DNA of 64,000 bases from a virus. Below the pieces are notes generated by a model. That model saw only the letters and a program-made list of their open reading frames with translations, was not told where the DNA came from and did not search any database. The stretch spans positions 96,001 to 160,000 of the IMG/VR virus record IMGVR_UViG_3300019850_000189. One strand, 5' to 3'. Below, piece by piece: positions 3,964-59,385 of the stretch. A program made the translations under genes and the position numbers. The first letter of the stretch is position 1. Every line of letters begins with the position of its first letter.

Positions 3964-3975
3964 GTTAAGAATAAA

Positions 3976-4126: not shown

Positions 4127-4142
4127 ATAAGAAGGAATCAGT

Positions 4143-4388
4143 ATGGATGCTAATAAACTTAGTAGGCTTCAAGAAATAAATTATAGAGTTTGTAAGGTAT
4201 GCGGTCTTTGTCAACATGGAAACTTCCCGAATAATGAATGGGGAACTTGTGATTTATATAATTATGAGCACTTAAAACACAGCAAAGTATTAAGAGAACT
4301 AAGTATCAACAAATCGGGCTCGTGTGATCATTTTGATTTAGATGAAGTAAAAGCCACAAAATTAGGAGCTTATAAAGGTCTTATTTAA
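4143..4388 (+). CDS. Cys-rich hypothetical protein
   Basis: CxxCxxC-like cluster; AGGA RBS. Confidence 0.6.
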   Translation: MDANKLSRLQEINYRVCKVCGLCQHGNFPNNEWGTCDLYNYEHLKHSKVLRELSINKSGSCDHFDLDEVKATKLGAYKGLI

Positions 4389-4421
4389 CGGAACACAACT
4401 AGTTCAATAAATGGATAGAAT

Positions 4422-5236: not shown

Positions 5237-5308
5237 GCCCGCGTAGCCCAACGGAGAAGGCTGCAGTCTTCTAAACTGCAGATGGTGGTTCAATTCCACC
5301 CGCGGGCG
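5237..5308 (+). tRNA. tRNA-Arg(TCT)
   Basis: Acceptor GCCCGCG/CGCGGGC; arm GCAGT-CT TCT AA-ACTGC. Confidence 0.92.
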
Positions 5309-5350
5309 CTCGGCCAGTTGGCCGGAAATTTATTTGGAGGTTTAAGTTTT

Positions 5351-5551
5351 ATGCAGGAAGGTTACGTGAAATGGTTTGATGAAAAGAAGGGATTTGGCTT
5401 CATTAGCAGAGATGATGGCGATGATCTTTTCGTTCATTATTCCGAAATTCAGAATGAAGGATTTAAAACATTAGCCGAGAATCAAAAAGTTTCTTTTGAA
5501 ATAAAAGAAGGTCCTAAAGGTTTGCAAGCTTCAAATGTAAAAATTCTTTAA
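5351..5551 (+). CDS. cspA: cold-shock protein (CspA family)
   Basis: RNP1 KGFGFI, RNP2 LFVHYS, KWF...EGPKG.QA.NV; GGAGG RBS. Confidence 0.96.
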
Positions 5552-5554
5552 TCG

Positions 5555-5588
5555 AAAAGATGGCCCCAATATTGGGGCCATCTTTTTT
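5555..5588 (+). terminator. intrinsic terminator (possibly bidirectional)
   Basis: AAAAGATGGCCCCAA/TTGGGGCCATCTTTT inverted repeat followed by a U tract. Confidence 0.85.
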
Positions 5589-5821
5589 AAATGGAAATAA
5601 TCATGAAATTTAATTTAGGTGATGAATTGAAAATTAAAGCTATAAGAGAAAAAAACAACCAACTCAAAAGCCAGATTTTATCCGCTTCAACTTCGGAGCT
5701 GCCTTTGGAAATTGCGCATATCTTTAAGTTCCTGGAGAATATTAATGAACAAGTTAGAGAATTATTAGAATTACTCAAAAAAGCTAATTCAAATGGCATG
5801 AGCCATATGAAATCAGATTGA

Positions 5822-5894
5822 GCTCCTGTAGTCTAGCTGGAAAAAATGCGGGTTTCCTAAACCTGATCCGCGGGTTCGAATCCCGCCAGGAGCA
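5822..5894 (+). tRNA. tRNA-Arg(CCT)
   Basis: Acceptor GCTCCTG/CAGGAGC; loop TT CCT AA; T arm GCGGG-TTCGAAT-CCCGC. Confidence 0.9.
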
Positions 5895-5930
5895 AATTAA
5901 TTTAATATAAAATATTTTAGGGGAGTTATT

Positions 5931-6848
5931 ATGCATGTTTTTTATCACTGCAGAGATCTTGACGGGCGTTGTTCCGGCGCAATCGCCAGATACTATCATG
6001 AGAATACAAAAAAAAATAGTAAAGTTGTAATGCACCCATTTGATTATGGATATTCATTTCCATTTGATGAAATAACTGACGGCGAGAAAGTATGGATGCT
6101 TGATGTATCTACCAATCCATATGATATAATGTTAGAAATTAATAATAGATATGATCTCACGGTTATAGATCATCATGCATCATTTATAAATTCTGGAATC
6201 CCTGAGAAATTAAATGGAAAGTTTGAAATCGGCAAGGCTGCCTGCGAACTTACTTGGAAGCACTGTTATGGTTATGGTTCTGGGATGCCAAGATTGGTTC
6301 ACTTATTAGGACGCTATGATGTCTGGGATAAATCAGATCTAGATATTTGGAACAAATACATTCTTCCAACACAGATGGGCGTACAACTGAAAAATGTGGA
6401 TCCAAAAGATGGTTTCGAATTCTGGAAGATGTATTTTGATGATCATTTTGGAACAGGCGACACGGGTATTGTTGAAACTACGATAAATAAACAGGGTTCT
6501 ATTGTTTTAGCTTATCAATATCAAATGGACAAAAAAAATGTGAATCTGAATTCTTTCGCTGCTAAGTTTTTAGATTTTAATGCCATATGTTTAAACTCGG
6601 CGCGTTCCAATTCACAAGTTTTCGAATCCGTATGGGATCCTAATAAATATGATCTTATGTTTTTCTGGAGTAGCGTAAAGGGAGAAAGATACACATGCTC
6701 TATAATTACCGATAAACCCAATATAGATGTCAGTAAGATAGCAAGTGCCTTCGGCGGAGGTGGCCACAAGCAGGCGGCAGGATTCCAATGCAAAAATGTA
6801 GTGATTTCTTCAGAATCAGAAGGTAAAAGAATTATCATAAATATGTAA
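5931..6848 (+). CDS. DHH/DHHA1 family phosphoesterase
   Basis: YHCRDLDG, VIDHH, RYDVW, GGGGHKQAAGF. Confidence 0.92.
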   Translation: MHVFYHCRDLDGRCSGAIARYYHENTKKNSKVVMHPFDYGYSFPFDEITDGEKVWMLDVSTNPYDIMLEINNRYDLTVIDHHASFINSGIPEKLNGKFEIGKAACELTWKHCYGYGSGMPRLVHLLGRYDVWDKSDLDIWNKYILPTQMGVQLKNVDPKDGFEFWKMYFDDHFGTGDTGIVETTINKQGSIVLAYQYQMDKKNVNLNSFAAKFLDFNAICLNSARSNSQVFESVWDPNKYDLMFFWSSVKGERYTCSIITDKPNIDVSKIASAFGGGGHKQAAGFQCKNVVISSESEGKRIIINM

Positions 6849-6937
6849 TATATATATTATTAAACCACCAAGAATACCAAGATAAACTTTCTATCCCTTA
6901 AAGTAAACAATGCTTACTTTAAAAAGTAGGGTGGTGT

Positions 6938-7024
6938 ATGGCAAAAACCATTAGCGCGAAAAATAAAAGACAAGAATTTTTCTGTAAATATTGTGGTGGC
7001 AAAATAGATGTCTTCGCAGAATAA
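6938..7024 (+). CDS. 28-aa CxxC microprotein (not in the ORF track)
   Basis: MAKTISAKNKRQEFFCKYCGGKIDVFAE; GGGTGG RBS-like sequence upstream. Confidence 0.35.
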   Translation: MAKTISAKNKRQEFFCKYCGGKIDVFAE

Positions 7025-7057
7025 AAAAAAACATATAGAAGTCAAAGGGAGTGGTAA

Positions 7058-7303
7058 ATGAGTTGGACAGTTATGTGGCGTGATATATTCACACCTATTG
7101 TTTTAGTCGGTCTCTTTTCTATGAATTTTATTACTTTATTCATAGCTATTCGTCGAGAGAAAAGGGATACCAAAAGAAACAGAGAAAATATAGTAAGAAA
7201 CGCGAAGCAAATTGCGAGAAATTACAAATTGTTAAAAGAAGCTTCGCGTGGCCACGCAGCACTAGAAAAAAAGCAGTTAAAACAAAACCTTCCTATGAAT
7301 TAG
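7058..7303 (+). CDS. single-TM small membrane protein
   Basis: Hydrophobic N-terminal helix then a basic coiled-coil tail; GGGAG RBS. Confidence 0.6.
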   Translation: MSWTVMWRDIFTPIVLVGLFSMNFITLFIAIRREKRDTKRNRENIVRNAKQIARNYKLLKEASRGHAALEKKQLKQNLPMN

Positions 7304-9148: not shown

Positions 9149-9220
9149 GTGCCCGTAGCTCAGTTGGTGTAGCTGGAGGCTCTAACCCTTCGTGTGTGGG
9201 TTCGAATCCCACCGGGCACT
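9149..9220 (+). tRNA. amber suppressor tRNA (anticodon CTA)
   Basis: Acceptor GTGCCCG/CGGGCAC; anticodon arm GGAGG-CT CTA AC-CCTTC; T arm GTGGG-TTCGAAT-CCCAC; U73. Confidence 0.88.
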
Positions 9221-12174: not shown

Positions 12175-12519
12175 GGGGGTGAATTGGCTTCGACAGAGAG
12201 TAACTGACACTAAAATTTATGCCAAGGTTCGCCAGGCCTTGTAAAACAGGGCGACTTATTAAAATAAATGCTGATGAAAATTTAGCACTTGCCGCTTAAT
12301 TAGCGGCTGTTCTTCTATTATTTGTTTTTGGTAGTAGAAAGAGCATCAGAAACAAAAACTCGTCAACTTACTCAAACTTGTAGGTAAGATGATTAAATTA
12401 TCCAAGATATTCTTTCTTTGGTCGCTTGAGAACCAAGATAGAAGAAAATAATCTCAAGATAAGCATATAAAAAGTAGTGGATTTCTCTCTGGACTCCGGA
12501 TCGTTACCGGACACCTCCA
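12175..12519 (+). ncRNA. ssrA: tmRNA
   Basis: Acceptor GGGGGTG/CACCTCC with G3-U70; 5' GGCTTCGAC; tag ORF 12270-12299 ADENLALAA* with a stop-codon hairpin; 3' GGACTCCGG...CCGGA T arm. Confidence 0.93.
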
Positions 12520-12583
12520 TATTATTAACCATTATAGGAGAATATTATAAAGTGTATGCTTCAGCCTGTTCCCAGGGGTATTA

Positions 12584-22231: not shown

Positions 22232-23461
22232 ATGGATAAATTTATTAATTTGCATGTTCACACAGATTCCAGCACGTTGGATGGATTTGGCACAAAAGAA
22301 GCGCGATTTAAATATGTTATCGAGGTCTTGGACCAATCCGCGCTGGCTATTACAGACCATGGAACGATGTCTGGTATATACGACTTCTGGAATATAGCGC
22401 AACAATATAATGTGAAGCCACTATTGGGAGTAGAAATATATTTTGTAAATAATCTCAAAAAACGCGAGAAGAAAGAAAAAAGATATCATCTTGTATTACT
22501 GGCTAAAAATTTAAAAGGCTACAAAAATATAATGCAAATTCAATATATAGCACATAAGTATGGTTTCTATAAAAAGCCAAGGGTGGATCGTGATGTACTA
22601 AAAAATTATTCTGACAATGTCATATGCCTATCGGCATGTGCTGCCAATGATATTAGTGTGGCGCTTGCAGATAATGATATAGCCCTCGCGAAACGGCGAA
22701 TAGATTGGTATAAGGAAACATATGGTGATGACTTCTACTTAGAGTTCCAGCCATATCAATCAGAAAAGTTAAGGCGGATAGATATAAAGCTTTATAAACT
22801 ATGGAAAAAGATACATCATATTAAAGCTGTCATAACCTCTGATGCTCATTATATACAGAAAGAGCAGAGCGAGGATCATGCTAAATTGCTATTAATTAAT
22901 ACAAGGGGAAAAGTTAATGACAATGGCTCTAATAAGTTTAGTTTTAACGAACATAATCTATATTTGCATTCCAGAAATGAGATTATAAATGAGGGATTCC
23001 AAACAGGATACGACAAAAATGATATTGAACAATGGTGTGATACTACAATTGAGGTTGCTGATAAAATTGAAGCTTATGATATAAGACAACAGAATTATAT
23101 AGTTCCGCCAATTCCTGAATTTATGGGTGCCGATCTAAATAAAATATTACGCAAGAAATGCCTTGAGGGATTGAAACAGAAAAAACTATTCGATGATATC
23201 TATATGAAAAGATTGGCTTATGAACTTAAAATAATATATAATGCCGGTTTTTCTTCTTACTTTCTAGTAGTAGCGGACATAGTTAATTGGGCCAAAAGGG
23301 AAGGTATTTATGTGGGCCCTTCCCGCGGATCCGCTGGCGCCTCGCTTACTGCTTATGCTCTGGGGATTACAGCTGTGGATCCTATTAAGCATGATTTACA
23401 ATTTGAGCGCTTCCTCAATCCGGAGCGCCTGGGTGGCAAAGTACTTAAATTTATTGAATAG
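22232..23461 (+). CDS. dnaE: DNA polymerase III alpha, N-terminal part (PHP domain + start of palm)
   Basis: LHVHTDSSTLDG, TDHG, SDAH, GPSRGSAG, FERFLNPER. Confidence 0.93.
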   Translation: MDKFINLHVHTDSSTLDGFGTKEARFKYVIEVLDQSALAITDHGTMSGIYDFWNIAQQYNVKPLLGVEIYFVNNLKKREKKEKRYHLVLLAKNLKGYKNIMQIQYIAHKYGFYKKPRVDRDVLKNYSDNVICLSACAANDISVALADNDIALAKRRIDWYKETYGDDFYLEFQPYQSEKLRRIDIKLYKLWKKIHHIKAVITSDAHYIQKEQSEDHAKLLLINTRGKVNDNGSNKFSFNEHNLYLHSRNEIINEGFQTGYDKNDIEQWCDTTIEVADKIEAYDIRQQNYIVPPIPEFMGADLNKILRKKCLEGLKQKKLFDDIYMKRLAYELKIIYNAGFSSYFLVVADIVNWAKREGIYVGPSRGSAGASLTAYALGITAVDPIKHDLQFERFLNPERLGGKVLKFIE

Positions 23462-23487
23462 TACAACTTTAAGAAGGAGTGATTATC

Positions 23488-23991
23488 ATGAGACCATCTT
23501 GGACCGAGCTATTTTTAAATATAACGCGTCTTGTTGCGCAGCGAAGCACATGTGCGCGCCTGAAGGTGGGCGCCGTCCTGGTAAAAGATAATCGTATCAT
23601 TTCTATGGGATACAATGGTGTTCCGCAAGGGCTTGAACACTGCGAAGATCACTTCAGGAAAATATACAATAACAAGGTTAGAATTCAAGACATGTCATGG
23701 GAAGAATATATAGCATCGCCCTTTTTTATGCAGGAACATCACGAATTTTCTACTCATAATGAAATACATGCGGAAACAAATGCGCTAATGTTTGCAGCGT
23801 ATAATGGTGTTAGTACAAGAGGAGCCGATATTTACGTATCATATACGCCGTGCATCCATTGTTCAAAACAAATTCTGCAAGCTGGTATCAACCATGTTTA
23901 TTATGATAAGCCGTATGATCGCGATATGACTGCGATAAAATTTCTTGAAGAGAACGATATAGCGTGCCAGCAAATTGGGGATGACAGTTGA
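23488..23991 (+). CDS. dCMP deaminase
   Basis: RSTC..LKVGAV, GYNG, HAETN, PCIHC. Confidence 0.93.
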   Translation: MRPSWTELFLNITRLVAQRSTCARLKVGAVLVKDNRIISMGYNGVPQGLEHCEDHFRKIYNNKVRIQDMSWEEYIASPFFMQEHHEFSTHNEIHAETNALMFAAYNGVSTRGADIYVSYTPCIHCSKQILQAGINHVYYDKPYDRDMTAIKFLEENDIACQQIGDDS

Positions 23992-25868
23992 TTATTGACA
24001 AAAACCGATTTAAAACAATTATGGATATTCTGCAAGGCTGGTATTGGGAAATTGACGAAAATAACGTTTATGTTTATTCCGCCGGCAAATGCAAAGAATT
24101 ATTGGGAGTTGAGCCAGAATATGTCTTGGGAAAAACTATATTTGATTTTATGGATGATGAAGAGGCGATAAGAATAGAAAAAGTTCTCAAACAATTCCGA
24201 GACGAGAGAAAAGATTTTACATCATTAGAACACGAGCTCATTAACAAAAATGGTTCCGTGATTACAGTTGAGAGCTGGTGCGCACCCATTTTTAATGATA
24301 AAGGTAAATTCGATGGATATTCTGGAATTGATTATAATATTACAGAACGTAAAAAGTGGGAAGAGGGCTTTCGCGAGCGTGAGAGAAAATTAAGTGTAAT
24401 AATTGCCAGTATAAGCGATGCAGTTATTGCGGTTGATTCGAAAGGGAATATCATTTTATTGAATCAGCGCGCTGAAGACATTTTAGGATGGCAACAGGCA
24501 GATGTTGTTGGCAAGAATCATGATGCTATAATTAATTTATTTGATTGCAATAACGATATTATGAACAGTCCATTGAAACAGGTTTTAGAAACGGCCAAAA
24601 TGGTCACGATAAAAGATAATACCACTTTAATTGCTAAAAATGGTAAAAATATAATGGTGGGCGCTGTTGCATCTCCTGTAAAATTGGATGGCAATATTAT
24701 TGGCGCCGTTATGATTTTTCGTGATGTTAGTATGCAAAAGATGGTAGAAATAGAACTATCTAAAACACAGAAACTCGATGCCGTTGGGGTCCTGGCTGGC
24801 GGCATGGCTCATGATTTCAATAATATATTAACAGCGATAAGTGGCCATATGGAAATTGCCAGGATGTTATCTCATGAGGATAAAGTTGTTGAACATCTCA
24901 GAGAAGCGCTTGGAGCCTGCAAGAGGGCAAAAAGCGTTACGCAACAATTACTCACATTTTCAAAAGGCGGTATGCCACTTCCCAAGCCTACTTCAGTTTC
25001 CAGCGTTATTAAAGATACAGCAAAATTTATTTTAACTGGTACAAATGTCGCAATTGAATATAATATAGATGAAAATATATCTGCTATTGATGTTGATGCC
25101 GAACAAATTTCGGAAGTGATACAAAATATAATAATAAATGCAATTCAGGCAATGCCAGATGGTGGGGTAATGCAACTAAGTGCACAGAATATTTATACTC
25201 CATTCAGAAATCTATGTGATAACTATGTGTCACCAGGTAAGTATGTTAAAATATCAATATCTGATACAGGTAGAGGAATTCCTAAAGAGCATCTATCCAA
25301 GATTTTCGATCCTTACTTTACCACCAAAAGCACCGGGAATGGTCTTGGCCTGTCAGTCGCATATTCTATTATTAAGAAGCATGGGGGATGTATATACGCC
25401 GATTCGAAAATTGGCCACGGCTCTATTTTCAATATATATCTTCCATCAACTGATAAAAAGGCAGAAATAGTAAGCGTCAAGAAGCCTATTAGAGGTACCG
25501 GCCGAATACTGTTTCTGGATGATGAATATTCCGTGAGAGAAACGGGCAAGGTATTGATTGAAAGTTTGGGATACACTGTAGATGTCGTTCGGAATGGTAG
25601 ATTGGCTGTTGAGCACTATAAAAAAGCACTTGAAGATGGGCAACCATTCAGAGCTATTATTGCGGATCTTACAATTCCAGGTGGTATGGGCGGCGTTGAA
25701 GCTATAAAAGAAATCAAGAAAGTAGATCAAAATGTAAAAGCTATCGTTTCAAGTGGCTATTCTACCTCTAATGTCATGAGCGAATACAGGAGCTACGGAT
25801 TTTCGGGGGCTCTCAGAAAGCCATATGATCTCGCAGAACTATCCAAAGCACTTCACGATGTGACATAA
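23988..25868 (+). CDS. PAS-PAS hybrid sensor histidine kinase with C-terminal receiver
   Basis: Two PAS/PAC domains; H-box AHDFNN; N, G1, F, G2 boxes; REC ILFLDDE, IADL, SSGY, KPY; no TM segment. Confidence 0.95.
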   Translation: MIIDKNRFKTIMDILQGWYWEIDENNVYVYSAGKCKELLGVEPEYVLGKTIFDFMDDEEAIRIEKVLKQFRDERKDFTSLEHELINKNGSVITVESWCAPIFNDKGKFDGYSGIDYNITERKKWEEGFRERERKLSVIIASISDAVIAVDSKGNIILLNQRAEDILGWQQADVVGKNHDAIINLFDCNNDIMNSPLKQVLETAKMVTIKDNTTLIAKNGKNIMVGAVASPVKLDGNIIGAVMIFRDVSMQKMVEIELSKTQKLDAVGVLAGGMAHDFNNILTAISGHMEIARMLSHEDKVVEHLREALGACKRAKSVTQQLLTFSKGGMPLPKPTSVSSVIKDTAKFILTGTNVAIEYNIDENISAIDVDAEQISEVIQNIIINAIQAMPDGGVMQLSAQNIYTPFRNLCDNYVSPGKYVKISISDTGRGIPKEHLSKIFDPYFTTKSTGNGLGLSVAYSIIKKHGGCIYADSKIGHGSIFNIYLPSTDKKAEIVSVKKPIRGTGRILFLDDEYSVRETGKVLIESLGYTVDVVRNGRLAVEHYKKALEDGQPFRAIIADLTIPGGMGGVEAIKEIKKVDQNVKAIVSSGYSTSNVMSEYRSYGFSGALRKPYDLAELSKALHDVT

Positions 25869-25881
25869 CATATATATTAAT

Positions 25882-28521
25882 ATGAGAAAAAAATTATATG
25901 AACATCTGAAAGAAAAGGGTATAGATGATGCCAAACATCGCGAACGTCTTGAAATGGAACTTAAAGAATTTAAAAAGTATGAAACTATTAATCACACTAA
26001 ATTGATAGTTGAAATAGACAATGGTGCGGAACCAAGCAAAAGGATTCTGATATGGTATTTGTTGGGGTATATCCATAATGACCCTATTGATAAAATTCCG
26101 GAAAATATAGTGGTACCTGGAAAGGCGCCAGATATAGACCTGGATTTTGAAGATGCCGAAAGAGGCAGAGTTATTGATTATATTAAGCGTCGATTCGGAT
26201 ATAATAATGTTGCTCAGGTTTGCAATGTGGTTACCTACTCTATCAAATCTGCTTTTCAAGATGCCGCCCGTATATATGGCATCCCGGCCCAAAAGGCTAT
26301 TTCCATATCCAAAAACATCAATGATGATAACTGGAATCAAAGCGATGCTTATACGCGATATCCTGAAATTTTTAAGTTCGCAGAACATCTCCTCGGTCAA
26401 ATGCGAAATTATGGCAGACACGCCGCGGCAATCATAATAACAGATAAACCAGTTCAGAAATATATACCATGTCAATATAATAAAGATGATGATATTCTGC
26501 TGGCCGAATTTACCGGTGCAGCTATTCAAGATATTAAATTATTAAAACTTGATATACTCGGGCTTTCAACTTTAAAAATTATGAAAGACACCATCGAACA
26601 TATCAAAGAACGCCATAATAAGGAAATATCATTAGGAGATATAGATTTTAACGACCTATCTGTTTTTAAGTTATTCAGTCACGGTTTAACTACCTCTATT
26701 TTCCAATTTGAAAGTCCATCTATGAAGGGTTATCTGCAGAAGCTTAAACCGAAAGAGCTAGAAGATATAGTAGTAATGAATGCTCTTTTTAGACCAGGCG
26801 CTATTCCAATTATTAATAATTATATTAAAAGAAAGCATGGCAAAGAAAAAATAGAATACGGGCACTCTGTATTAGAAAAAGTTTTAAAACCAACTTTTGG
26901 TCTTCTGGTATTCCAGGAAGAAACTATTATGATAGCTCATCTTGCATCCGGAATAAGCTTAGGTAGAGCTGATATGCTGCGCCGCTATATGGAAAAATGG
27001 AATTCCAAATATAAGAATGATATTAAGGGAAAGAAAAAATGGGAATCAGAATTTTTTCAAGGTTGCCAGAAGCAAGGCTTGAATTCAAAGGAATCAAAAT
27101 ATATTTGGGATTACCTGATTAAACAAACCGGATACCAATTCAATCGCTGCGTGTCTGGAGACTGCATCATCGATGCCGATACATCTAACAAATGGCGGCC
27201 TACTATTGGTGAGATGTATCGTATTAAAAATGATACTAAATATGCCAAAGAAACAAATCATTACCCGTTAATGAAACGATATTGTGGTAAAAAGGGCTAC
27301 GGTAAAAGTTATTCATTGTGTGAAGATGGACTTTTACGACTAAACAATATAGTAGATATCTATTATGAAGGTGACCGCGAAGTATTTGAAATTCTTCTGG
27401 AAGATGGTAAGAAAATAGAAGTGACAGGCAATCATAACTTTCCACTCCCAAATGGCCAAAAACTTAATATAGATAATGGGCTGAAGGCTGGGGACCATCT
27501 CTATGTTAACGAAGGATATAAGAAGAGACCCAAAGGACAAAAAGTCAATGAGCCAACCTTGAGACAAATTGTATCAATCAAAAGCGTAGGGATCAAGGAT
27601 ACGTACAATATAGAAATGGCAGCTCCTAATCACACTCTATCTATTAATGGCATTATAACTTCTAATTCTCATGCTCTTTCATATGCCGTCATCGCATATC
27701 AAACGGCATGGCTGAAGGTACATTATCCTGTTGAATTCATGTGTGCATCTCTCAATTCAGATAAAACCCCTATTGACAAGCTCACAGCAGAATGCGCACA
27801 GTTGGGGATTAAGGTGCTATACCCTAATATAAATAAGAGTAAAATAGGATTTAGTATTGTGGATGATAGAACCATTATTTATGGATTGAGCAGTGTTAAA
27901 AACTGTGGCGAGGTTCCGGCGCAATGGATAACTGCGCATGCGCCTTACGAAAGTGTTACCGAGTTTTTTACAAAGCTCAAAGATGATAAATTTGGAACAA
28001 AGGTGAATAAAAGAGTATTGGACAGTCTCATTCTATCCGGCGCATTTAGCGACCTTTATAAAAATACTAAAACATTATTTAATAATTATAATGAGTGGCG
28101 GAAGAAATGGGGCAAGACTGATTTTGAAACATACATAAAAGGCAAAGAAGTTGAAGACTATAATGATGATGAAAAATCGAATTTCCTTCAGGATTTACTA
28201 AGTATCGATACATCCATGGCATTATTTGAGAAGAAAAGCAAAGAAATTAATCAACTTAGGCAATTACTTGGAAAAGGATATATAATTGGGATTATTACGG
28301 ATTTTGTCCGAAAACGCGACAGAAACGGAAATATGATGGCTTTTGTGAGCATAAGAGATGGCAATGGCATCAGACGATATCCTCTTTTCGCCAGGCAATT
28401 TGCGAATAATAGTAAAAATTTGATTAAAAATAAAATATTAGCATTTAAAATGTCTAATATGAGAGATGGAGATCGCTTGATAACAAGTATCATGCAACCG
28501 GATACATCAATCAATGGGTAA
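25882..28521 (+). CDS. dnaE: DNA polymerase III alpha, C-terminal part (catalytic palm, fingers, HhH, OB), contains an intein
   Basis: PDIDLDF, GRHAAA, KLDILGL, FQFES, ALFRPG, FQEE, FNR/SHA. Confidence 0.94.
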   Translation: MRKKLYEHLKEKGIDDAKHRERLEMELKEFKKYETINHTKLIVEIDNGAEPSKRILIWYLLGYIHNDPIDKIPENIVVPGKAPDIDLDFEDAERGRVIDYIKRRFGYNNVAQVCNVVTYSIKSAFQDAARIYGIPAQKAISISKNINDDNWNQSDAYTRYPEIFKFAEHLLGQMRNYGRHAAAIIITDKPVQKYIPCQYNKDDDILLAEFTGAAIQDIKLLKLDILGLSTLKIMKDTIEHIKERHNKEISLGDIDFNDLSVFKLFSHGLTTSIFQFESPSMKGYLQKLKPKELEDIVVMNALFRPGAIPIINNYIKRKHGKEKIEYGHSVLEKVLKPTFGLLVFQEETIMIAHLASGISLGRADMLRRYMEKWNSKYKNDIKGKKKWESEFFQGCQKQGLNSKESKYIWDYLIKQTGYQFNRCVSGDCIIDADTSNKWRPTIGEMYRIKNDTKYAKETNHYPLMKRYCGKKGYGKSYSLCEDGLLRLNNIVDIYYEGDREVFEILLEDGKKIEVTGNHNFPLPNGQKLNIDNGLKAGDHLYVNEGYKKRPKGQKVNEPTLRQIVSIKSVGIKDTYNIEMAAPNHTLSINGIITSNSHALSYAVIAYQTAWLKVHYPVEFMCASLNSDKTPIDKLTAECAQLGIKVLYPNINKSKIGFSIVDDRTIIYGLSSVKNCGEVPAQWITAHAPYESVTEFFTKLKDDKFGTKVNKRVLDSLILSGAFSDLYKNTKTLFNNYNEWRKKWGKTDFETYIKGKEVEDYNDDEKSNFLQDLLSIDTSMALFEKKSKEINQLRQLLGKGYIIGIITDFVRKRDRNGNMMAFVSIRDGNGIRRYPLFARQFANNSKNLIKNKILAFKMSNMRDGDRLITSIMQPDTSING
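27148..27666 (+). mobile_element. mini-intein (173 aa, no homing endonuclease)
   Basis: Starts CVSGD after GYQFNR; block B EVTGNH; block F DTYNIEM..PNHT; ends TSN before Ser of SHALSY. Confidence 0.92.
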
Positions 28522-40909: not shown

Positions 40910-41236
40910 ATGAAAGAATTAAAATATAAATGTGTTTGTGGTGCCGCTTTTGAGGAGCTTGAAGAGCTCCAGTCTCATCAAATGGTATGTGTGCTTTTTC
41001 GCAAAAGCATAATAAAGCAGATGCCTAAACACAAAGAGAAACAACAGATTAAAGTGGGAGTAAAAAATGTTTCAAATAAGATTATCAAAGACGAAAAACC
41101 TCCGGGAGAAGAAGAGCATATTAAAAGAGTGCCTTATAAAACAACAAGACGCAGCACAAAAAGCTCATCGGGTGCTTCATTGGACAAGAGCAACAATCAG
41201 AAGATTGAAACGCCTGAAAATGAGAAATCCAGCTAA
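40910..41236 (+). CDS. C2HC/C2H2-type zinc finger protein
   Basis: YKCVCGAAF...LQSHQMVC; ACATATATA motif just upstream. Confidence 0.5.
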   Translation: MKELKYKCVCGAAFEELEELQSHQMVCVLFRKSIIKQMPKHKEKQQIKVGVKNVSNKIIKDEKPPGEEEHIKRVPYKTTRRSTKSSSGASLDKSNNQKIETPENEKSS

Positions 41237-42479
41237 CCTGGAAATGGACCATCCATTTGAGTTAGGCAATGAGAAAAAGCTTCATTGGATTGATATAATG
41301 ATAAAATTGCCGCACCTGTTTCGCTGGAAGTGGGATTACGTATATAGCATATATTCCGAAACAGTCTGGAGAGTTCAAGAAAGCGAAGCGCGTGAGCTGG
41401 GATTTGATTACCCAATGAAAAATCCCAAAGATAATGTTGATAAGTTTAGATGCATATATACTGAAGCTGAAGCCATAATGGAGAATGAACTAATTCATTA
41501 TTATGAAGAATGGGTAAAAATTTTTATTCCACAATTTACTAAACGTATAAAAACGGGGACATATGGAAAACGATAATGTTGGAATTAGGGATTGGCGGAA
41601 ACTCACAAGCAATTCGGTAGAAAATTACACAATTAAAGATATGATGTCTGTCATATCTCTGAATCTGGAAGAGTTTCTTCGAAGCAAAGATGAGAATTAT
41701 GTGACAGATGCCTTAAACTTACTTGACACAATTCTTTTGACCTATAAGTGCGAAAAAATAGATGAACATTATCTATTCACGCCCAATCATGAATTGTTTG
41801 TAATTAGCACACCAATATATGTAGGGAGATAAAAAACATGACCAAGGAACAACTTAAGAAAAGGGTCGCAAAATTTCAAGAAGAAACAACAACAAATAAA
41901 ATTGGCGAGGCTGAAATGTTCGCGAGGAGAAAGATGGCTCAATTTCTTATTATGGAGCGTAAATATACGGAGCATATTATAATGAATGGCCTTGAGGCCA
42001 AAGTGAAAATTAATATGGAAATTGAACTTTCGGAGAAAGGTGGTTAATGTGCACGACGCAATAGTTAAAATGAGGAATGAAGAAGTAATAAAAATATCCA
42101 TGTGTAAAGAACACTCTCAATCGGAGAGTGGCACACTTATTATAGAGAATCATCTGGGAGAAAAATATCTATTTTCTCCTTACAATTTTTTGTATGCAAA
42201 ATTCATACCAGCAGACGAGAAGGTAAAATGACCATAAAATTGCATATGATAGATGGCAAAGTTGTCATCAAAAGTCAGCAAGATGATAAATCTCACATCT
42301 TATTCACAGATCCTAAATTTTCTTTAATAGGTCATATTAATAAATTTCACTATGATGGGGATAAACTTATTGTAGATGAAATGAATATCGAACGCTTAAG
42401 TGTGATCCCTGAAATGCCATCGCAGTAAATTTAGAGAGAGCATAGAGTCGGGTTTTATTAAAAATCGAGGGGACATTTC

Positions 42480-43103
42480 GTGGAATTGAGGCAGAAATAT
42501 TTATGTGGAGATATGAAGTATGAGAATTTCGAAAATAAGCACAAGGGACAAACTCTGTATGTAATAGGCACTGGTGCCTCATTGAGGGATTTTGATTGGA
42601 ACAAAATAAGGGATGAAAACACATTGGCCTACAACAAATCAGTATTTCATATTCCATTTTGGCCAACTTATTATTGGATATGGGATAGAAATGGCAATGA
42701 AGAAAACATTTATAATTTAATGGATTTCGCACCGCTTTCCAAGTTCAGTAAATATAGATGGATTCAGGTAAAGAGATTACCAGTAGGAGATCAAAGATTG
42801 TTCGGGTCGGAGGGATTACGAAGAGCGGGTAGTTCAGCCATTTATGCTATAGAGCTGGCGCTTTGGATGGGTTTTGAAAAAATCATTATACTTGGTCAAG
42901 ATATGTATGTTGATCGATGGTATTCATTCTGGCAGAAGGTAGAAACTCCAGCATCGTTCAAGGCCAATAAAGTCAAATGGTTTGGCCGCGAGTTGCTGAA
43001 CGAGTTTCGTAGATTTGAACAAATGAAGGATCGGATATTGGTAGGCCATAGTCCAAGAAGCTTGTTGGTGCAAAATGGCATCTTAAACCATATAGAGACA
43101 TAA
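42480..43103 (+). CDS. DUF115/Maf (MptE-like) family protein
   Basis: HKGQTLYVIGTGASL, S.A.YAI.LA.WMGFEKIIILGQD. Confidence 0.75.
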   Translation: MELRQKYLCGDMKYENFENKHKGQTLYVIGTGASLRDFDWNKIRDENTLAYNKSVFHIPFWPTYYWIWDRNGNEENIYNLMDFAPLSKFSKYRWIQVKRLPVGDQRLFGSEGLRRAGSSAIYAIELALWMGFEKIIILGQDMYVDRWYSFWQKVETPASFKANKVKWFGRELLNEFRRFEQMKDRILVGHSPRSLLVQNGILNHIET

Positions 43104-55261: not shown

Positions 55262-55290
55262 TTTACAAACATTACTAAAAGCTGTATAAT
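55262..55290 (+). promoter_or_regulatory. sigma70-type promoter
   Basis: TTTACA-17 nt-TATAAT upstream of ORF 55297 and Topo IB. Confidence 0.8.
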
Positions 55291-55610
55291 ATAAATATGA
55301 GAAGATATTTTCATGCACCGGGTTATATTCTAGATGGCAAATTAGATCAGAACTGCGGCCGAGTAATATTATATGATGGATTGATACTGGTTTCTCGAAA
55401 TGTAGCAAATGATCATAACGATTTGCTAAGAGCTTTTGCCAGGCGGTATAACTTTAAACCAAGATATGTTATTTCAAATGCTATTCGAATGTATTACAAA
55501 TATATTCCCGAGGAAGAAGCATATGTAATTTGCGGAGTTCGCCGGATCGACGATGAACTTTTTCTAAAAGATTCAAAGATCTATTCAATATTAATCAAGG
55601 AAGAGTTGAA

Positions 55611-57362
55611 ATGAAGACTGATAATAAAGTAAAATGGAGACAGCTTTCTTATAATGGCCCATCATTCCCCCAAATTTACCAGTTAAAAGGCTACGAAATT
55701 CCGATCAATATGCCATGGTTTGATGATAAGCCAATTAAGGTTAAATTCCCATCAAATATTGAAGAAATGCTTTATCATTGGGCATCTAAAACAAATACGC
55801 AATATGTAAAGGATCCTGTATTTAGAGATAACTTCTTTAAAGATCTTAAAGCGGCTGTCCAAACAGTTTTTATTTCAATGCTACATGAGGCAATGAAAGC
55901 CAAGTTCCCAGACGACTGGGATTTTTCAGTAATAGTTTCCGCTATTGAAAAGAAAAAAGAAGCCAGGAAAAACAGAACCAAAGAAGAGAAGGAAAAAGCC
56001 AAGCTTGAAACAGCAGCTCGGAAAGAAAAATATGGATATGCTATGATGGATGGCCATCGTATAGAAATAATGAATTACACTGTTGAGCCACCTGGTATTT
56101 TCATGGGAAGAGGAAAAAATCCGTTAAGGGGAAGATGGAAGTCACGAATTTATCCCAATGATGTAACGCTTAATTTGAGCAAAGACGCGCCAATTCCAGT
56201 TCCTGATGTTCCTGAGTATATTAGTACTAAATGGAAGAACATAGTCAACAAGCAGGATGCAATGTGGCCGGCTTTCTGGCTTGATAAATTAACAGGAAAT
56301 TACAAGTATGTTATGCCAAGCCCGAAGTCATATATTCGGCAGCAGAAGGATATAGAGAAATTTGAAAAAGCCATGCGGCTAATAAAAAAAATGCCTGAAG
56401 CTATCGAGTTTATTAGTAAAAGAATGCAAACAAAGTTTGATAGAGAACCCGCAACAGTCTGTAGTTTAATAGCTCATATGGGGTTAAGAGTGGGTGATGA
56501 AAAGGACATCGACAGTGAAGCCGAAACTTATGGGGCAACAACATTGTTAAAGAAGCATATTCAAATTAAAGAGAATTTCGTATATTTCAATTTTATTGGC
56601 AAAGACAGTATTCTATACAAAGAAAAAGTTGAGCTTCCAGATCTTACAGTCAAGAATCTTAAAAGCATTATTAAATTCAAAAAACCTAATGAGCAGGTGT
56701 TCAACGTGACATCCAATGACATCAATGAACTTCTTGGCAAATTCATGCCTGGGCTTACCGCCAAAGTTTTTAGAACTGCTATAGCAACCGCGATAATGGA
56801 GAATTATCTTAAACAACATAAAATTAAAAATGCAAGCACCTTGGAAAAAATCAAAGTTTTTAAAGAGGCCAATATTTTGGTAGCTCAGAAACTTAATCAT
56901 CGTAAGACACCAACAGAGAGTGCCATTAATAGCATCTCCAATAAAGAAAATAAATTAGCTGAGATAAACAAGATCCTAAAAACAATGAAGAAAACGGGCA
57001 AAATTGAAATTGTCAGAGCTCTGAAAGAAAAACGTAAAAAGGTTGCAGGATATAAAAAGAAATACAAGAATTCAAGATTAAGGAATGCTATATCCAGAGC
57101 CAATAGTTCTTACGGTGCCAAGAAAAGAAAATGGAAAAATCGAATTAAGAAGCTTGAGGATAGAAAGAATAAGCTTGACTTTCAGTTGGACTTGCAAAAG
57201 AAGACGTTGGATCTTAATCTTGGGACATCACTCACTTCATATGTAAATCCCAGAGTAACTTTTGGATGGGCTAAATCAATAAACCTTGAACTAAGACATA
57301 TATATACAAAAGCAAATATTGAGAGATTTGGCTGGGCCCAGAAAAAGCACAATGTCCTATGA
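55611..57362 (+). CDS. DNA topoisomerase IB, long eukaryote/archaea-like form
   Basis: KWRQLSYNGP.F...Y, EPPGIFMGRG, LRVGDEK, GKDSI, AKVFRT, ANILVAQKLNH, GTSLTSYVNPR. Confidence 0.93.
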   Translation: MKTDNKVKWRQLSYNGPSFPQIYQLKGYEIPINMPWFDDKPIKVKFPSNIEEMLYHWASKTNTQYVKDPVFRDNFFKDLKAAVQTVFISMLHEAMKAKFPDDWDFSVIVSAIEKKKEARKNRTKEEKEKAKLETAARKEKYGYAMMDGHRIEIMNYTVEPPGIFMGRGKNPLRGRWKSRIYPNDVTLNLSKDAPIPVPDVPEYISTKWKNIVNKQDAMWPAFWLDKLTGNYKYVMPSPKSYIRQQKDIEKFEKAMRLIKKMPEAIEFISKRMQTKFDREPATVCSLIAHMGLRVGDEKDIDSEAETYGATTLLKKHIQIKENFVYFNFIGKDSILYKEKVELPDLTVKNLKSIIKFKKPNEQVFNVTSNDINELLGKFMPGLTAKVFRTAIATAIMENYLKQHKIKNASTLEKIKVFKEANILVAQKLNHRKTPTESAINSISNKENKLAEINKILKTMKKTGKIEIVRALKEKRKKVAGYKKKYKNSRLRNAISRANSSYGAKKRKWKNRIKKLEDRKNKLDFQLDLQKKTLDLNLGTSLTSYVNPRVTFGWAKSINLELRHIYTKANIERFGWAQKKHNVL

Positions 57363-57948
57363 ACCAAATAATTCAAATAATAGATATCGCTAGTTCAAGA
57401 GAAAGACAAGAGAAAATTGGCAAAATTGCCGAAGTCGTACAAAGAGTGGTCATAGAATATAATAAGAATATTCAAGAGCCAAGGAATAAGATCGTTGCCA
57501 GCTGGCCCGCTGAACTCCTGAGTAAAAAAAACCAGTTATGCGAAATAGAAGTCGGCACAAGTAAAGCACCACGTTTCTATGACGGGTATTTAAAAGTTGT
57601 ATTTAGTCCCGAAGAAAGTATAGAGGGGGTGATTAGGAAGGTCAAAAGAGCAGTTGCTTTGACTTTCCTGAAAGATGAACCTAGTAAATGAAGTTGACAT
57701 AGTAGTTCGTAATTTATCCGAAGAATTACCGTTAAATATGACTCTCAAAGTAGATCATTTCGAGGATATTCTTGATGAAGAGCAAAAAATATACACGCAT
57801 ATGAGGGTGCATCTTGTACTAGTGGAGCAGAAGTTCACCAGCAATAAGCTAACTGACATTATAATTTTGTGCGACAGAAATAGCCATATATCTAAGATTA
57901 AGAAAATGATCAAGTCGGCTATGGCCAAAGATTTGTTAAGATAAATCT

Positions 57949-59385
57949 ATGCTATGCAAATTAGAACTAACAAACAATTTAATATTTATCACTTCAAGAA
58001 ATTATATTATCCAACATATATCCAAGAATTTTACTTATCGCGATATATCTCAAGCTTTTGTTCACGGCAAATTTCAAAAACACAATGTCCGCATAATTAA
58101 ACTATTGAAGTTTCAAAGTGATAAATATGCTTCACTCCCTATAGGGTTATTGGATGAATTAAAGTATCTTCTTGATAATATAGAAGATATGAATTATAAG
58201 ATTATAGATAATCGCTCAACAATAAAACATAATTTTACTGATGAGCAAATAAAGAATTGCCTTAACACGCCTTTAAGGGATTATCAAGTGGATGCGGCAA
58301 AAACATTTTTCCGGGAACAGCAAATGATCATGAAAGCAGCTACCGGTTCCGGTAAGACGAAAGTAACGGCTGCAATTATAAAGTTATTGGATGTTCCTAC
58401 TTTAATATTAGCTCACAAGAAGGATCTGGTGCATCAAACAGCCAAAAGATTCATCGAAGATGGTCTCACCAATATAGGTATTGTTCAGGGTACAAATATG
58501 CACACAGATAAAGTAACCATTGCAACAATTCAGTCTGCACACAAAATAGATCCTAACATTCGCAATAACTTCAAAATGGTAGTGTCAGATGAATGCCATA
58601 GATGCAACTCTCCTACTTATCAAGCTTTGTTGTCTCAAATGGTGAATACACATTATAAGCTGGGTTTGTCTGCAACTCCATACAACAAAGACAAACTGCA
58701 TAATGCTCTTGTTAAGTCTTGGATAGGTGAGATTAAATTTGATCTGGGAGCAAAAGATCTTATTGCACAAGGATTCCTGGCTGAGCCAGAAATACATATT
58801 ATACCAATCCGCAAAGCTGTCCAAGTGAGGCATTTAAAAAGTGGCTATAAAAAATACTCGATAAATATCGAGGATTATGGCTGGGTTGGTGCGGAGAGGA
58901 ATGGCATTATTCACAATGCATATCGAAATGATGTAATAAAAGTGATTGCTGAAAATGCACCGGGACCTGTATTAGTGCTTGTTAAAAGTATCAAACACGG
59001 TGAAAAACTCAATAAAATAATTTCCAATTCAATATTTATTTATGGCGATACAAAAATCGAAGATCGACAAGAGCATATTAAAGAATTCGAAGAAGGCAAA
59101 AACATAATACTAATCGGCTCCACAATTTTGGATGAAGGAATCGATATCCAGGAACTTAAAACCCTTATTGTATGCGCAGGAGGTAAATCTTTTATTCGGA
59201 CCATTCAAAGATTAGGCCGAGCCTTGAGAAAAACTGAGACTAAACATGATGTATTGATATACGATTTTATGGACACTACAAATAGATATCTTGAAAAACA
59301 CAGTAAAGAAAGAATTAAGGCATATCAAAAAGAAGGATTTCAAAAAATAATTTTTGATAAAGGCTATGACGAAAACCAAAAGTAA
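57949..59385 (+). CDS. uvsW: SF2 DNA helicase (T4 UvsW-like)
   Basis: LRDYQ, ATGSGKT, DECH, GLSATP, QRLGRALR. Confidence 0.85.
   Translation: MLCKLELTNNLIFITSRNYIIQHISKNFTYRDISQAFVHGKFQKHNVRIIKLLKFQSDKYASLPIGLLDELKYLLDNIEDMNYKIIDNRSTIKHNFTDEQIKNCLNTPLRDYQVDAAKTFFREQQMIMKAATGSGKTKVTAAIIKLLDVPTLILAHKKDLVHQTAKRFIEDGLTNIGIVQGTNMHTDKVTIATIQSAHKIDPNIRNNFKMVVSDECHRCNSPTYQALLSQMVNTHYKLGLSATPYNKDKLHNALVKSWIGEIKFDLGAKDLIAQGFLAEPEIHIIPIRKAVQVRHLKSGYKKYSINIEDYGWVGAERNGIIHNAYRNDVIKVIAENAPGPVLVLVKSIKHGEKLNKIISNSIFIYGDTKIEDRQEHIKEFEEGKNIILIGSTILDEGIDIQELKTLIVCAGGKSFIRTIQRLGRALRKTETKHDVLIYDFMDTTNRYLEKHSKERIKAYQKEGFQKIIFDKGYDENQK

Follow-up and report, generated by a model that had tools for sequence, protein, structure and literature searches.

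A long-form topoisomerase IB gene and its flanking features

The window analyzed here, a 64,000-nucleotide stretch (positions 96,001 to 160,000) of the IMG/VR virus record IMGVR_UViG_3300019850_000189, contains on its plus strand an ORF at 55611-57362 that opens with ATG, ends with TGA, and holds no internal stop (Table 1). The earlier note had read this ORF as a full-length topoisomerase IB (TopIB) of the long type, and our analysis bears this out, since the ORF has exactly these boundaries and its product matches three Pfam domains far above their curated cut-offs. Both profiles that the note had put forward as a check gave matches, Topoisom_I_N (PF02919) over profile positions 1-212 of 213 (E = 2.9e-57, 194 bits versus a cut-off of 25) and Topoisom_I (PF01028) at E = 7.7e-51 (173 bits versus 23.7), and Topo_C_assoc (PF14370) matched residues 517-579 (E = 2.7e-13, 50 bits versus 25.1). 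The best matches among solved structures, aligned over the full length, are archaeal 6z01 (2e-96) and human TOP1 (about 5e-72). No NCBIfam model matched the protein, and the one PHROGs match was partial, to the uncharacterized family phrog_23460 over residues 280-430. A search for longer proteins returned six eukaryotic TOP1 proteins only, and no fused phage forms.

The counterparts of the five catalytic residues of human TOP1 had also been assigned correctly, as all five (R293, K331, R388, H430, and Y544) were recovered in a HMMER alignment to the human enzyme. The phage and human motifs in this alignment are LRVGDEK/LRAGNEK, FIGKDS/FLGKDS, AKVFRT, LNH/CNH, and TSYVNPR/LSYLDPR, with LGTSLTSYVNPR around Tyr544 lining up with the human Tyr723 motif. 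This Arg-Lys-Arg-His-Tyr pentad is invariant among 19 close relatives and in alignments of 47 and 65 sequences, the last being the tree set (65 of 65 aligned rows). Altogether, these results suggest that the ORF encodes a complete long-form TopIB that is apparently active, as read from its conserved active site.

Table 1. Features of the TopIB locus in window coordinates.
Feature	Coordinates	Strand	Basis
Match to the sigma-70 promoter consensus, TTTACA-17-TATAAT, within the 38-nt gap ahead of ORF 55297	55262..55290	+	11/12 positions
Upstream 105-aa ORF, stop overlaps TopIB start (ATGA)	55297..55614	+	ORF list; L002 orthologue
Shine-Dalgarno-like AAGGAAGAG, 5-13 nt ahead of ATG 55611	55597..55605	+	Read from sequence
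Long-form TopIB gene, 583 aa plus TGA stop	55611..57362	+	ORF list, translation, three Pfam domains, PDB and fold matches
Cap/N-terminal DNA-binding region, residues 7-235, Topoisom_I_N	55629..56315	+	PF02919; yeast 1ois
Catalytic core, residues 240-461, Topoisom_I, holds R293, K331, R388, H430	56328..56993	+	PF01028; invariance in alignments
Catalytic R293 codon	56487-56489	+	Counterpart of human R488
Catalytic K331 codon	56601-56603	+	Counterpart of human K532
Catalytic R388 codon	56772-56774	+	Counterpart of human R590
Catalytic H430 codon	56898-56900	+	Counterpart of human H632
Linker, predicted antiparallel two-helix hairpin, residues 436-532 (97 residues)	56916..57206	+	DSSP on AlphaFold2 model, composition
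C-terminal domain with active-site Tyr544	57207..57359	+	PF14370; Tyr723-motif alignment
Active-site Y544 codon	57240-57242	+	Counterpart of human Y723
Downstream 110-aa ORF, start overlaps TopIB stop (ATGA)	57359..57691	+	ORF list, sequence
SF2 helicase (ResIII/DEAD/Helicase_C), in the conserved module the first named gene after TopIB	57949..59385	+	Pfam

The 105-aa ORF has a 71% identical orthologue at the equivalent position in L002, a 131-kb contig that has 30 ORFs in common with this genome at 26-80% identity (60% for TopIB). Pfam searches gave no match for the five small ORFs flanking TopIB, the 105-aa and 110-aa ORFs included, and these neighbors supply no functional link to the gene. 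The gene order of the module, namely TopIB, small ORFs, helicase, nucleotidyltransferase, DUF2201, and AAA, is common to L002 and L104, and the TopIB gene module was found again in independent assemblies from other samples at 57-63% identity.

The earlier note had also listed sigma-70 promoters in the surrounding genome and a host-type promoter at 55262. The site at 55262 exists, and its -10 box ends 6 nt ahead of the ATG of ORF 55297, but the region shows no enrichment of sigma-70-like sites (20, versus 35 expected from shuffles), and we therefore treat this one as no more than a consensus match. Expression of TopIB from this candidate promoter is plausible, in which case the 105-aa ORF would be driven first and TopIB would be coupled to it through the ATGA overlap.

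Predicted structure and linker

The AlphaFold2 model of the protein (pLDDT 93.2, pTM 0.86) superposes on the human TOP1-DNA complexes 1rrj_A and 1k4t_A with TM 0.81-0.83 (Foldseek E = 8e-43, about 590 columns, 28-29% identity), and this superposition takes in the linker. The cap matches the yeast N-terminal fragment 1ois with a TMt of 0.89, and the short enzymes reach only TM 0.26-0.32, in line with the claim that this is not a short bacterial TopIB. The phage enzyme is thus predicted to have the closed C-clamp fold of human TOP1 on DNA.

A basic coiled-coil linker had been proposed ahead of the catalytic tyrosine, and the model agrees, with two long helices (residues 436-484 and 487-532 by DSSP, pLDDT above 90) in a segment that is 34% Lys+Arg and has a pI of 10.6. 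The His-to-Tyr spacing that brackets this linker is 114 residues in the phage enzyme, as compared, in the 65-row set, with 59-71 in most archaea, 58-71 in nucleocytoplasmic large DNA viruses (NCLDV), and 84-95 in plant and insect TOP1. Two outliers aside, the closest value among the sampled archaea is that of Nitrosopumilales, at 99.

Carrier genome and its topoisomerase content

The carrier record is 189 kb long (a phage of roughly 190 kb) and about 79% complete. It encodes a gp23-like major head protein (phrog_138, 3.4e-76), a portal (phrog_213), a large terminase (TerL, phrog_2), and a contractile sheath (phrog_23). Head and terminase share 29-36% identity with their counterparts in T4-superfamily phages, relatives that all infect bacteria. 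DnaB, primase, and DnaE (Pol III alpha) are encoded as well, together with bacterial-type two-component and HD-GYP genes. The contig also carries a tmRNA (RF00023, 145.6 bits), for which blastn against GenBank phages gave no match. These findings uphold the bacterial-virus surroundings described in the earlier note and, judged by gene content, the carrier is a genuine T4-superfamily tailed phage of a bacterium.

The TopIB gene does not stand out within this genome, since its GC content of 0.356 equals that of the genome and its codon-usage cosine is 0.94 (genome mean 0.92). Because codon usage is native and the module recurs in independent assemblies, the locus gives no sign of a chimera or of recent transfer. 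The gene is vertically inherited within the phage group.

T4-superfamily phages usually encode a type IIA topoisomerase (PMC2647321). Pfam searches, whose positive controls were cellular genomes only, found PF00521, PF00204, and PF01131 (type IA/IIA) absent from the 189-kb record, although a type II enzyme could sit in the part of the genome missing from it. The same searches gave no type IA or IIA topoisomerase in five related TopIB-bearing contigs, among them a 388-kb contig that is 98% complete. Within the recovered part of the genome, TopIB is thus the sole topoisomerase detected.

Phylogeny and origin of the phage enzyme

The best named matches of the phage TopIB are archaeal, at 35-40% identity, and among 185,579 cellular species representatives no protein matches it above 40% identity. 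In IMG/VR, a single-sequence scan gave nothing, and an alignment-based scan was needed to find relatives. At E <= 1e-30, the phage sequences amount to 1,057 clusters. Maximum-likelihood trees were built from the 65-row set, which covers archaea, eukaryotes, NCLDV, and phages, and were left unrooted because the short TopIB has only about 200 poorly alignable residues in common with the long form. These trees recover two phage clades, A (support 100/100, with the enzyme of the window) and B (100/99), an archaeal clade of 33 rows (100/99), and a clade of eukaryotes plus NCLDV (100/99). The phage enzymes fall outside both of the latter, and the archaeal clade excludes every phage row. Clade A as sister to all archaea receives weak support (84/72), and monophyly of clades A and B is not rejected (p-AU = 0.35).

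The earlier note had offered two explanations for the gene, a cross-domain acquisition or a new phage lineage. As to the first, a recent capture from an archaeon (e.g., a marine or soil member of Nitrososphaerota) or from a eukaryote or NCLDV could account for the archaeal identity of the top named matches and for the linker, which is lengthened in marine and soil Nitrososphaerota too, with the Nitrosopumilales spacing of 99 lying near the 114 of the phage. However, such a source would be expected neither from the 40% ceiling on identity among cellular species nor from the exclusion of the phages from the archaeal clade, and grouping the phages with Nitrosopumilales is rejected by the AU test (p-AU = 0.008, delta lnL = 56). 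In addition, GC content and codon usage fit the phage genome, and diverged phages share TopIB at about the divergence of its neighbors. We therefore regard recent capture as very unlikely. Even less credible is the idea that no bacteriophage carries the gene at all, the carrier being an archaeal virus or the locus an assembly chimera or binning contaminant. While the named relatives nearest to the gene are archaeal TopIB genes and IMG/VR records are metagenomic assemblies, the same contig carries a tmRNA, DnaE, bacterial-type two-component and HD-GYP genes, and T4-like head and terminase genes of bacterial-phage kinship, and the synteny is kept in independently assembled contigs of other samples, with native codon usage.

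A phage lineage is thus favored over recent capture because the phage enzymes form supported clades of their own, the Nitrosopumilales grouping is rejected, codon usage is native, and the module is conserved. Taken together, the sequence comparisons support the view that the enzyme belongs to an old, previously unrecognized, phage-borne branch of the long TopIB family. The expectation that no large set of phage homologues had been described held as well: neither GenBank phages nor BFVD contain a described phage enzyme of the long form, and the literature searched holds no paper on long-form TopIB in tailed phages.

A bolder and rather doubtful extension is that the phage clades are ancient viral lineages lying between the archaeal and the eukaryote/NCLDV enzymes. 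The long enzyme would then have moved between the virosphere and the archaeal/proto-eukaryotic stem, for example with archaeal TopIB or eukaryotic TOP1 deriving from a virus-borne ancestor, and of the viral lineages that survive, clade A would be the nearest sister to the archaeal enzymes. A virus-borne ancestor has likewise been proposed for eukaryotic Topo IIA.

Proposed role

We consider it probable, with good confidence, that the ORF is an intact and functional long-form TopIB and a stable core gene of a large T4-superfamily phage lineage infecting bacteria, with a swivel role suggested by its context. Following the mechanism of its family, the enzyme would clamp duplex DNA, and Tyr544 would cut one strand and form a 3'-phosphotyrosyl bond. 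The downstream duplex would then swivel under the friction of cap and linker before the strand is religated. Given the conserved active site, positive and negative supercoils may both be relaxed in this way, without ATP or Mg2+. In its genomic context, TopIB could serve as a swivel ahead of the phage DnaB/DnaE replisome and of transcription, taking the place of the type IIA enzyme usual in T4-like phages and lessening the reliance of the phage on the gyrase and Topo IV of its host. Because neither this genome nor the five related contigs yielded a type IA or IIA topoisomerase, a replication and transcription swivel would be the most likely role.

Two other roles have to be weighed. TopIB might be a tool of host takeover, expressed early from a host-type promoter, relaxing the negative supercoiling kept by gyrase, and thereby collapsing host transcription and replication initiation, or else countering factors, of the host or of competitors, that work via gyrase. 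The strong sigma-70-like consensus upstream and the array of small unassigned ORFs, typical of early regions, are compatible with this, as is the ability of TopIB to relax negative as well as positive supercoils (PMC2647321). However, the gene is part of a conserved module and stands next to a helicase, in a replication-rich region with DnaB, primase, and DnaE, and since no other phage topoisomerase was found, housekeeping of phage DNA is the simpler reading. We therefore judge host takeover unlikely as the main role, and note that it and the swivel role are not mutually exclusive. Far less probable is a main role in sequence-specific strand transfer, by which the enzyme, like those of poxviruses or like tyrosine recombinases, would for example resolve concatemers or ends or take part in recombination. 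TopIB and the tyrosine recombinases do share a catalytic fold, and Foldseek gave weak matches to integrases and Xer proteins, but the cap, linker, and predicted closed clamp are those of the non-specific long enzymes, not of the short site-specific poxvirus type.

Implications

Reviews of topoisomerase evolution place the long TopIB in Eukarya and some Archaea only, a distribution used to argue that the archaeal-eukaryal ancestor had Topo IB, and list among viruses only the short poxvirus type and a mimivirus enzyme of bacterial type (PMC2647321). A deep and diverse branch of the long enzyme in tailed phages of bacteria would be a new party in this history, to which the window adds the distinct clade A, together with a gene module that is conserved and a formal test that speaks against a Nitrosopumilales origin. 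Given such a branch, inferences about the ancestry of the enzyme have to be drawn afresh, phage sequences included. Our results also suggest that some large T4-like phages may relieve torsional stress by means of a swivelase that needs no ATP, rather than by the usual type II enzyme, and hence a changed dependence on host gyrase. In addition, the phage enzymes are compact (about 540-590 aa), with an extra-long linker and no disordered N-terminus, which would make them handy material for work on how the linker controls rotation and on sensitivity to poisons of the camptothecin class.

Comparison with known systems

The T4-type topoisomerase II (gp39/gp52/gp60) presumably does the same job, the relief of torsional stress on phage DNA, but it is an unrelated, ATP-dependent type IIA enzyme, and neither the record nor the related contigs with TopIB yielded its genes. 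The short TopIB enzymes (Deinococcus 2F4Q/3M4A, variola 2H7F, and vaccinia 1A41) share catalytic fold and chemistry with the phage enzyme; however, they are about 310-350 aa long, lack the long-type cap and linker, and match in the core only (TMq 0.24-0.32, phmmer E = 1e-4 to 1e-3), so that the 583-aa protein, with both cap and linker, falls outside the short bacterial/poxviral class.

Among phage-encoded proteins, the TopIB-like ones of two cultured jumbo phages, Achromobacter phage Motura (QDH83578, 541 aa) and Pseudomonas phage PaBG, have a TopIB catalytic core as here. The Motura enzyme, the sole GenBank phage match (PF01028, 7.6e-22), is 26% identical over this core but has neither the Topoisom_I_N cap nor the linker, and its N-terminal half is unrelated. 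Structurally, both match in the core only (TMq 0.32-0.33), within a different architecture. In BFVD, the viral proteins that match the structure over its full length all come from NCLDV (TMq 0.76-0.81). The long enzymes of NCLDV (metagenomic Dasosvirus, Marseillevirus LCMAC, and GVMAG contigs L012-L014) have the core domains and the pentad in common with the phage TopIB but differ in having about 60-120 additional residues at the N-terminus, often a long extension at the C-terminus, and a short linker, and they group with eukaryotes, not with phages.

Archaeal TopIB resembles the phage enzyme in size, in domains, and in the absence of an N-terminal extension, and CsTopIB of Caldiarchaeum subterraneum (6Z01/6Z03, 35-36% identity) is its best sequence match among solved structures. 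Most archaeal enzymes nevertheless have a shorter linker, and the phage TopIB is not nested in their clade. Eukaryotic TOP1 carries a long, disordered, and poorly conserved N-terminal extension, about 500-750 extra residues, as compared with only 6 residues before the cap in the phage enzyme, and the His-to-Tyr spacing of human TOP1 is 91 (from the H632 and Y723 numbering). Although the phage protein branches outside the eukaryote-plus-NCLDV clade and so does not belong to the eukaryotic subfamily, it has in common with human TOP1 (Topo70; 1RRJ, 1K4T, 1A36) the catalytic pentad, the predicted overall fold, and the domain order of cap, core, coiled-coil linker, and C-terminal tyrosine.

A complete long-form enzyme

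The TopIB gene lies exactly where the earlier note had placed it, and its product contains three strong Pfam matches, in the order Topoisom_I_N, Topoisom_I, and Topo_C_assoc; the first two are the profiles that the note had proposed as a check. Of the solved structures, the archaeal Caldiarchaeum enzyme 6z01 comes closest in sequence (2e-96), and a dozen human TOP1 entries come next (about 5e-72, end-to-end alignment); matches to the short enzymes of variola, vaccinia, and Deinococcus are confined to the core, at no better than 1e-4 to 1e-3. In the alignments, the five catalytic counterparts named from the sequence proved correct (R293, K331, R388, H430, and Y544).

The AlphaFold2 model, computed from an input alignment of 47 sequences, is confident (mean pLDDT 93.2, pTM 0.86). 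In it, the core is joined to the C-terminal domain by a pair of very long helices (436-484 and 487-532) that run antiparallel, and this predicted 97-residue hairpin (34% Lys+Arg, pI 10.6) agrees with the basic coiled-coil linker that the note had described. Foldseek superposed the whole chain onto two structures of human TOP1 on DNA, 1rrj_A and 1k4t_A (E about 1e-42, TMq 0.81, TMt 0.83, about 590 columns). The archaeal structures 6z01 and 6z03 are matched with equal significance, yet their TM is low and the rmsd is near 26 Å, presumably because the clamp has another conformation in these crystals; the match to short bacterial and poxviral enzymes covers the core only (TMq 0.26-0.32). Since the protein combines a helical linker with a whole-chain match to human TOP1, and the short enzymes match in the core only, it has every sequence and structural feature of the long-form architecture claimed for it. 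No model of NCBIfam release 20 matches the protein (P0001) at E<=1e-5, a gap that may contribute to the “hypothetical protein” labels on many archaeal and phage copies in NCBI records.

Features of the TopIB gene, its protein, the carrier genome, and the comparison loci (window positions unless stated otherwise)
Feature	Position	Strand	Details
TopIB ORF	55611-57362	+	583 aa, ATG to TGA, 0 internal stops
Shine-Dalgarno-like AAGGAAGAG	5-13 nt before TopIB start	+	read from sequence
Promoter-like TTTACA-17-TATAAT	55262-55290	+	good consensus match, 38-nt intergenic gap
Topoisom_I_N	residues 7-235		Pfam E 2.9e-57
Topoisom_I	residues 240-461		Pfam E 7.7e-51
Topo_C_assoc	residues 517-579		Pfam E 2.7e-13
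tRNA, anticodon CUA	9149-9220	+	ARAGORN label tRNA-Pyl; Rfam tRNA 55.7 bits
One-piece tmRNA	12175-12522	+	ARAGORN; Rfam RF00023 145.6 bits; tag peptide ADENLALAA
DnaE, first part	22232-23461	+	PHP and start of NTPase domain
Hybrid histidine kinase PAS-PAS-HisKA-HATPase-REC	23988-25868	+	626 aa, between DnaE halves
DnaE, second part	25882-28521	+	remainder; intein-like matches around residues 423-683
Three paralogous large homing/HNH endonuclease genes	carrier genome (G000) 3431-5110, 5288-7162, 41175-43073		outside window (L016, L018)
Clade-B-like long TopIB of L091	contig CAZLSE010000038.1, 3892-5603		binned Gammaproteobacteria; 40% identical
Motura TopIB-like gene	L107, 790-2415		MN094788.1 (Achromobacter phage Motura)

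A native gene in the genome of a bacterial virus

The stop of the preceding 105-aa ORF overlaps the TopIB start, and the start of the following 110-aa ORF overlaps the TopIB stop, each through ATGA; TopIB is therefore part of a translationally coupled array on the + strand. The putative promoter noted earlier at 55262 is present as a good consensus match, and sites of this type show no enrichment here. Its -10 box TATAAT ends 6 nt ahead of the ATG of ORF 55297-55614, with no Shine-Dalgarno sequence between the two (window 55285-55299). Given this spacing, a genuine promoter here would mean that the TopIB operon begins with a gene translated from an mRNA that has a very short leader or none.

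The GC content of the gene equals that of the genome (both 0.356), and its codon-usage cosine to the genome pool is 0.94, vs 0.92 ± 0.05 for the average gene. A 131-kb contig from another metagenome (L002, the same as L005) has 30 ORFs in common with the carrier genome, in conserved order and at amino-acid identities of 26-80%, with TopIB in mid-range at 60%. Furthermore, a module comprising TopIB, small ORFs, an SF2 helicase, a nucleotidyltransferase, DUF2201, and an AAA ATPase recurs in an ENA assembly (L104), and the closest homologue (63%) lies in a comparable small-ORF array of a Logan assembly (L103). Since composition is native, order is kept, and the module recurs, we rejected a chimera or a recent import as the source of the gene. 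Comparison of the sequences shows that the enzyme is intact and has been conserved over the long term.

The window covers bases 96001-160000 of the carrier record, an IMG/VR virus of 189,375 bp that is about 79% complete. Outside the window, the record has genes for a portal, a tail sheath, a large terminase, a ribonucleotide reductase, and a major head protein of gp23-like type (phrog_138, 3.4e-76). Its head and terminase proteins are 29-36% identical to those of T4-superfamily myoviruses of bacteria and uncultured huge phages, the named relatives being Microcystis phage Mel-JY01, Rhodothermus phage RM378, the Flavobacterium “immuto” phages, and the T-even group. Within the window lie eight tRNAs, DnaB, a Toprim primase, a DnaE-type Pol III alpha, bacterial-style two-component and HD-GYP proteins, and the tmRNA, which has no blastn match in GenBank phages. 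Because tmRNA and DnaE are bacterial features, we read the carrier as a phage of a bacterium and rejected an archaeal virus; together with the T4-like head and terminase, they bear out the bacterial-virus genome claimed earlier.

The CUA-anticodon tRNA, at the end of the tRNA array, would read TAG, which is the stop in 46 of the 265 ORFs of at least 100 aa; the TopIB gene has no in-frame TAG. This tRNA may act as a suppressor, either in recoding late genes or in countering the host. DnaE is split over two ORFs (22232-28521, +), between which a 170-aa ORF also lies, and the portal gene (857 aa) has an HNH-like insert. The three endonuclease paralogues (559-632 aa) match phrog_3339 at 1e-124 to 1e-136, and selfish endonucleases seem to have colonised the genome heavily, consistent with its several split genes.

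Distribution of related enzymes

A word-indexed search of 5.8 billion proteins returned 18 clusters at 39-63% identity, then archaeal proteins at 33-45%, and an exhaustive profile search gave 1,057 clusters (50% identity) at E <= 1e-30. The alignment-guided IMG/VR scan recovered long TopIB from large viral contigs (L005-L010, 62-388 kb), the 388-kb contig being 98% complete with the same major-head family as the carrier, as well as NCLDV-type forms (L012-L014) and two divergent short-linker forms (L011 and L015). A representative-library protein of 1441 aa (P0133) reaches 656 bits with the phage TopIB profile, spread over 7 separate stretches and with misaligned catalytic columns; it may come from a phage-like TopIB gene model that is duplicated, fused, or interrupted by introns.

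Scanning one genome from each of 185,579 prokaryote species yielded 541 relatives, of which the best 80 are all archaeal but one, at <=40% identity, and mostly Nitrososphaerota. The exception (L091) is a 16.5-kb contig in a gammaproteobacterial MAG bin, phage-like in its small ORFs, Ogg glycosylase, and radical SAM; the bin label is the only, weak, host hint that we saw. The TopIB gene of L091 is interrupted in the linker: its 504-aa ORF is overlapped by one of 87 aa, which is in a different frame and carries the Tyr domain. Either the break is a frameshift error, or the enzyme is naturally bipartite and resembles the kinetoplastid TopIB heterodimer.

Among 50,697 GenBank phage records, no long-form homologue was found, the sole match being the 541-aa “topoisomerase” of Achromobacter phage Motura. 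In BFVD, full-length structural matches come from NCLDV only, and those to phage entries (Motura and PaBG) are limited to the core.

Phage clades and their origin

The main tree (65 rows, 540 columns, maximum likelihood in IQ-TREE under LG+C20+F+G4 PMSF) is unrooted; its named eukaryotes, a thin sample, are one fungus, two plants, and one beetle, and its archaea were chosen without targeting the Asgard group. Phage clade A, which includes the window's enzyme (7 rows, 100/100), and phage clade B (17 rows, 100/99) stand apart from archaea (33 rows, 100/99) and from eukaryotes with NCLDV (8 rows, 100/99). With regard to the origins weighed in the earlier note, which had called for a phylogeny, a phage lineage with its own clades is favoured over recent import, given the native GC and codon usage and the recurrent module.

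How A, B, and archaea branch relative to one another is poorly supported (84/72 for A as the sister of archaea), and A and B as a single clade were not rejected (AU test, p 0.35). The spacing from the catalytic His to the Tyr, a proxy of linker length, is 113-114 residues in 19 of the 24 clade A and B sequences; it is 59-71 in most archaea, 68-71 in NCLDV, 99 in Nitrosopumilales, and 84-95 in plant and insect TOP1. Since the 113-114 spacing is common to both clades and independent of the tree, these sequences favour a common phage ancestor of A and B. Two outliers aside, Nitrosopumilales are the archaea nearest to the phages in linker length, and grouping the phages with them was rejected (AU p 0.008, delta lnL 56). 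The two divergent short-linker forms, on a 121-kb viral contig (L011, 92% complete, spacing 68) and a 55-kb one (L015, GC 56%, spacing 39), fall inside the archaeal clade on long branches and may belong to archaeal viruses or be independent captures. We make no claim on donor vs recipient because no root was inferred.

The broad tree (203-row FastTree with 50%-cluster representatives) agrees: a phage and archaea assemblage (100), made up of archaea, clade A (7 rows), and a phage super-group of 35 rows, is apart from NCLDV and eukaryote-like sequences. Because this tree is quick and unrooted, with mostly unnamed rows, it serves as a consistency check only. Further representatives on its phage branch have spacings of mostly 103-107; two that were looked up neighbour DnaB, RecA, clamp-loader subunit, and T4 rIIB genes and thus lie in a phage context.

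Proposed function

By analogy with the enzyme family, the C-clamp would close around duplex DNA, Tyr544 would make a 3'-phosphotyrosyl bond, and the downstream duplex would turn under control before religation, such that supercoils of both signs would be removed without ATP or Mg2+. T4-superfamily phages usually encode Topo IIA (PMC2647321), though no type IIA (PF00521, PF00204) or type IA (PF01131) topoisomerase was detectable in the 189-kb record (about 79% complete) or in those related contigs with TopIB that were tested, the near-complete 388-kb genome among them. The main functional rival is a host-directed role, in which TopIB would relax the host chromosome globally. With no type IIA or IA enzyme detected, the simplest reading from genomic context is that TopIB acts as the lineage's swivel for its own DnaB/DnaE replisome and transcription.

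Relation to known enzymes

Altogether, the window's TopIB is a long-form family member on a phage-borne branch, of which we found no description in the literature searched. The earlier note had allowed for many described phage homologues; none of long form appeared there or in the GenBank phage records, and a 2009 phylogenomic review lists viral TopIB from poxvirus and mimivirus only (PMC2647321). The window contributes a distinct phage lineage, clade A, whose module is conserved, along with a linker character common to clades A and B and the formal rejection of a Nitrosopumilales origin.

Family membership follows from the full set of long-form features, combined with the lack of those that define the eukaryotic nuclear, archaeal, and short bacterial/poxviral groups. 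Specifically, the phage TopIB has no N-terminal extension like that of the eukaryotic nuclear TOP1 subfamily and lies outside that clade; it likewise does not fit the archaeal TopIB clade or the short enzymes. The cultured jumbo phages Motura and PaBG (Pseudomonas phage; BFVD S5VM74) have a second TopIB-like architecture of about 540-560 aa, to which phrog_23460 (“unknown function”) may correspond, with a TopIB catalytic core and an unrelated N-terminal half. This architecture has neither cap nor linker, vs the full long form in the window phage.
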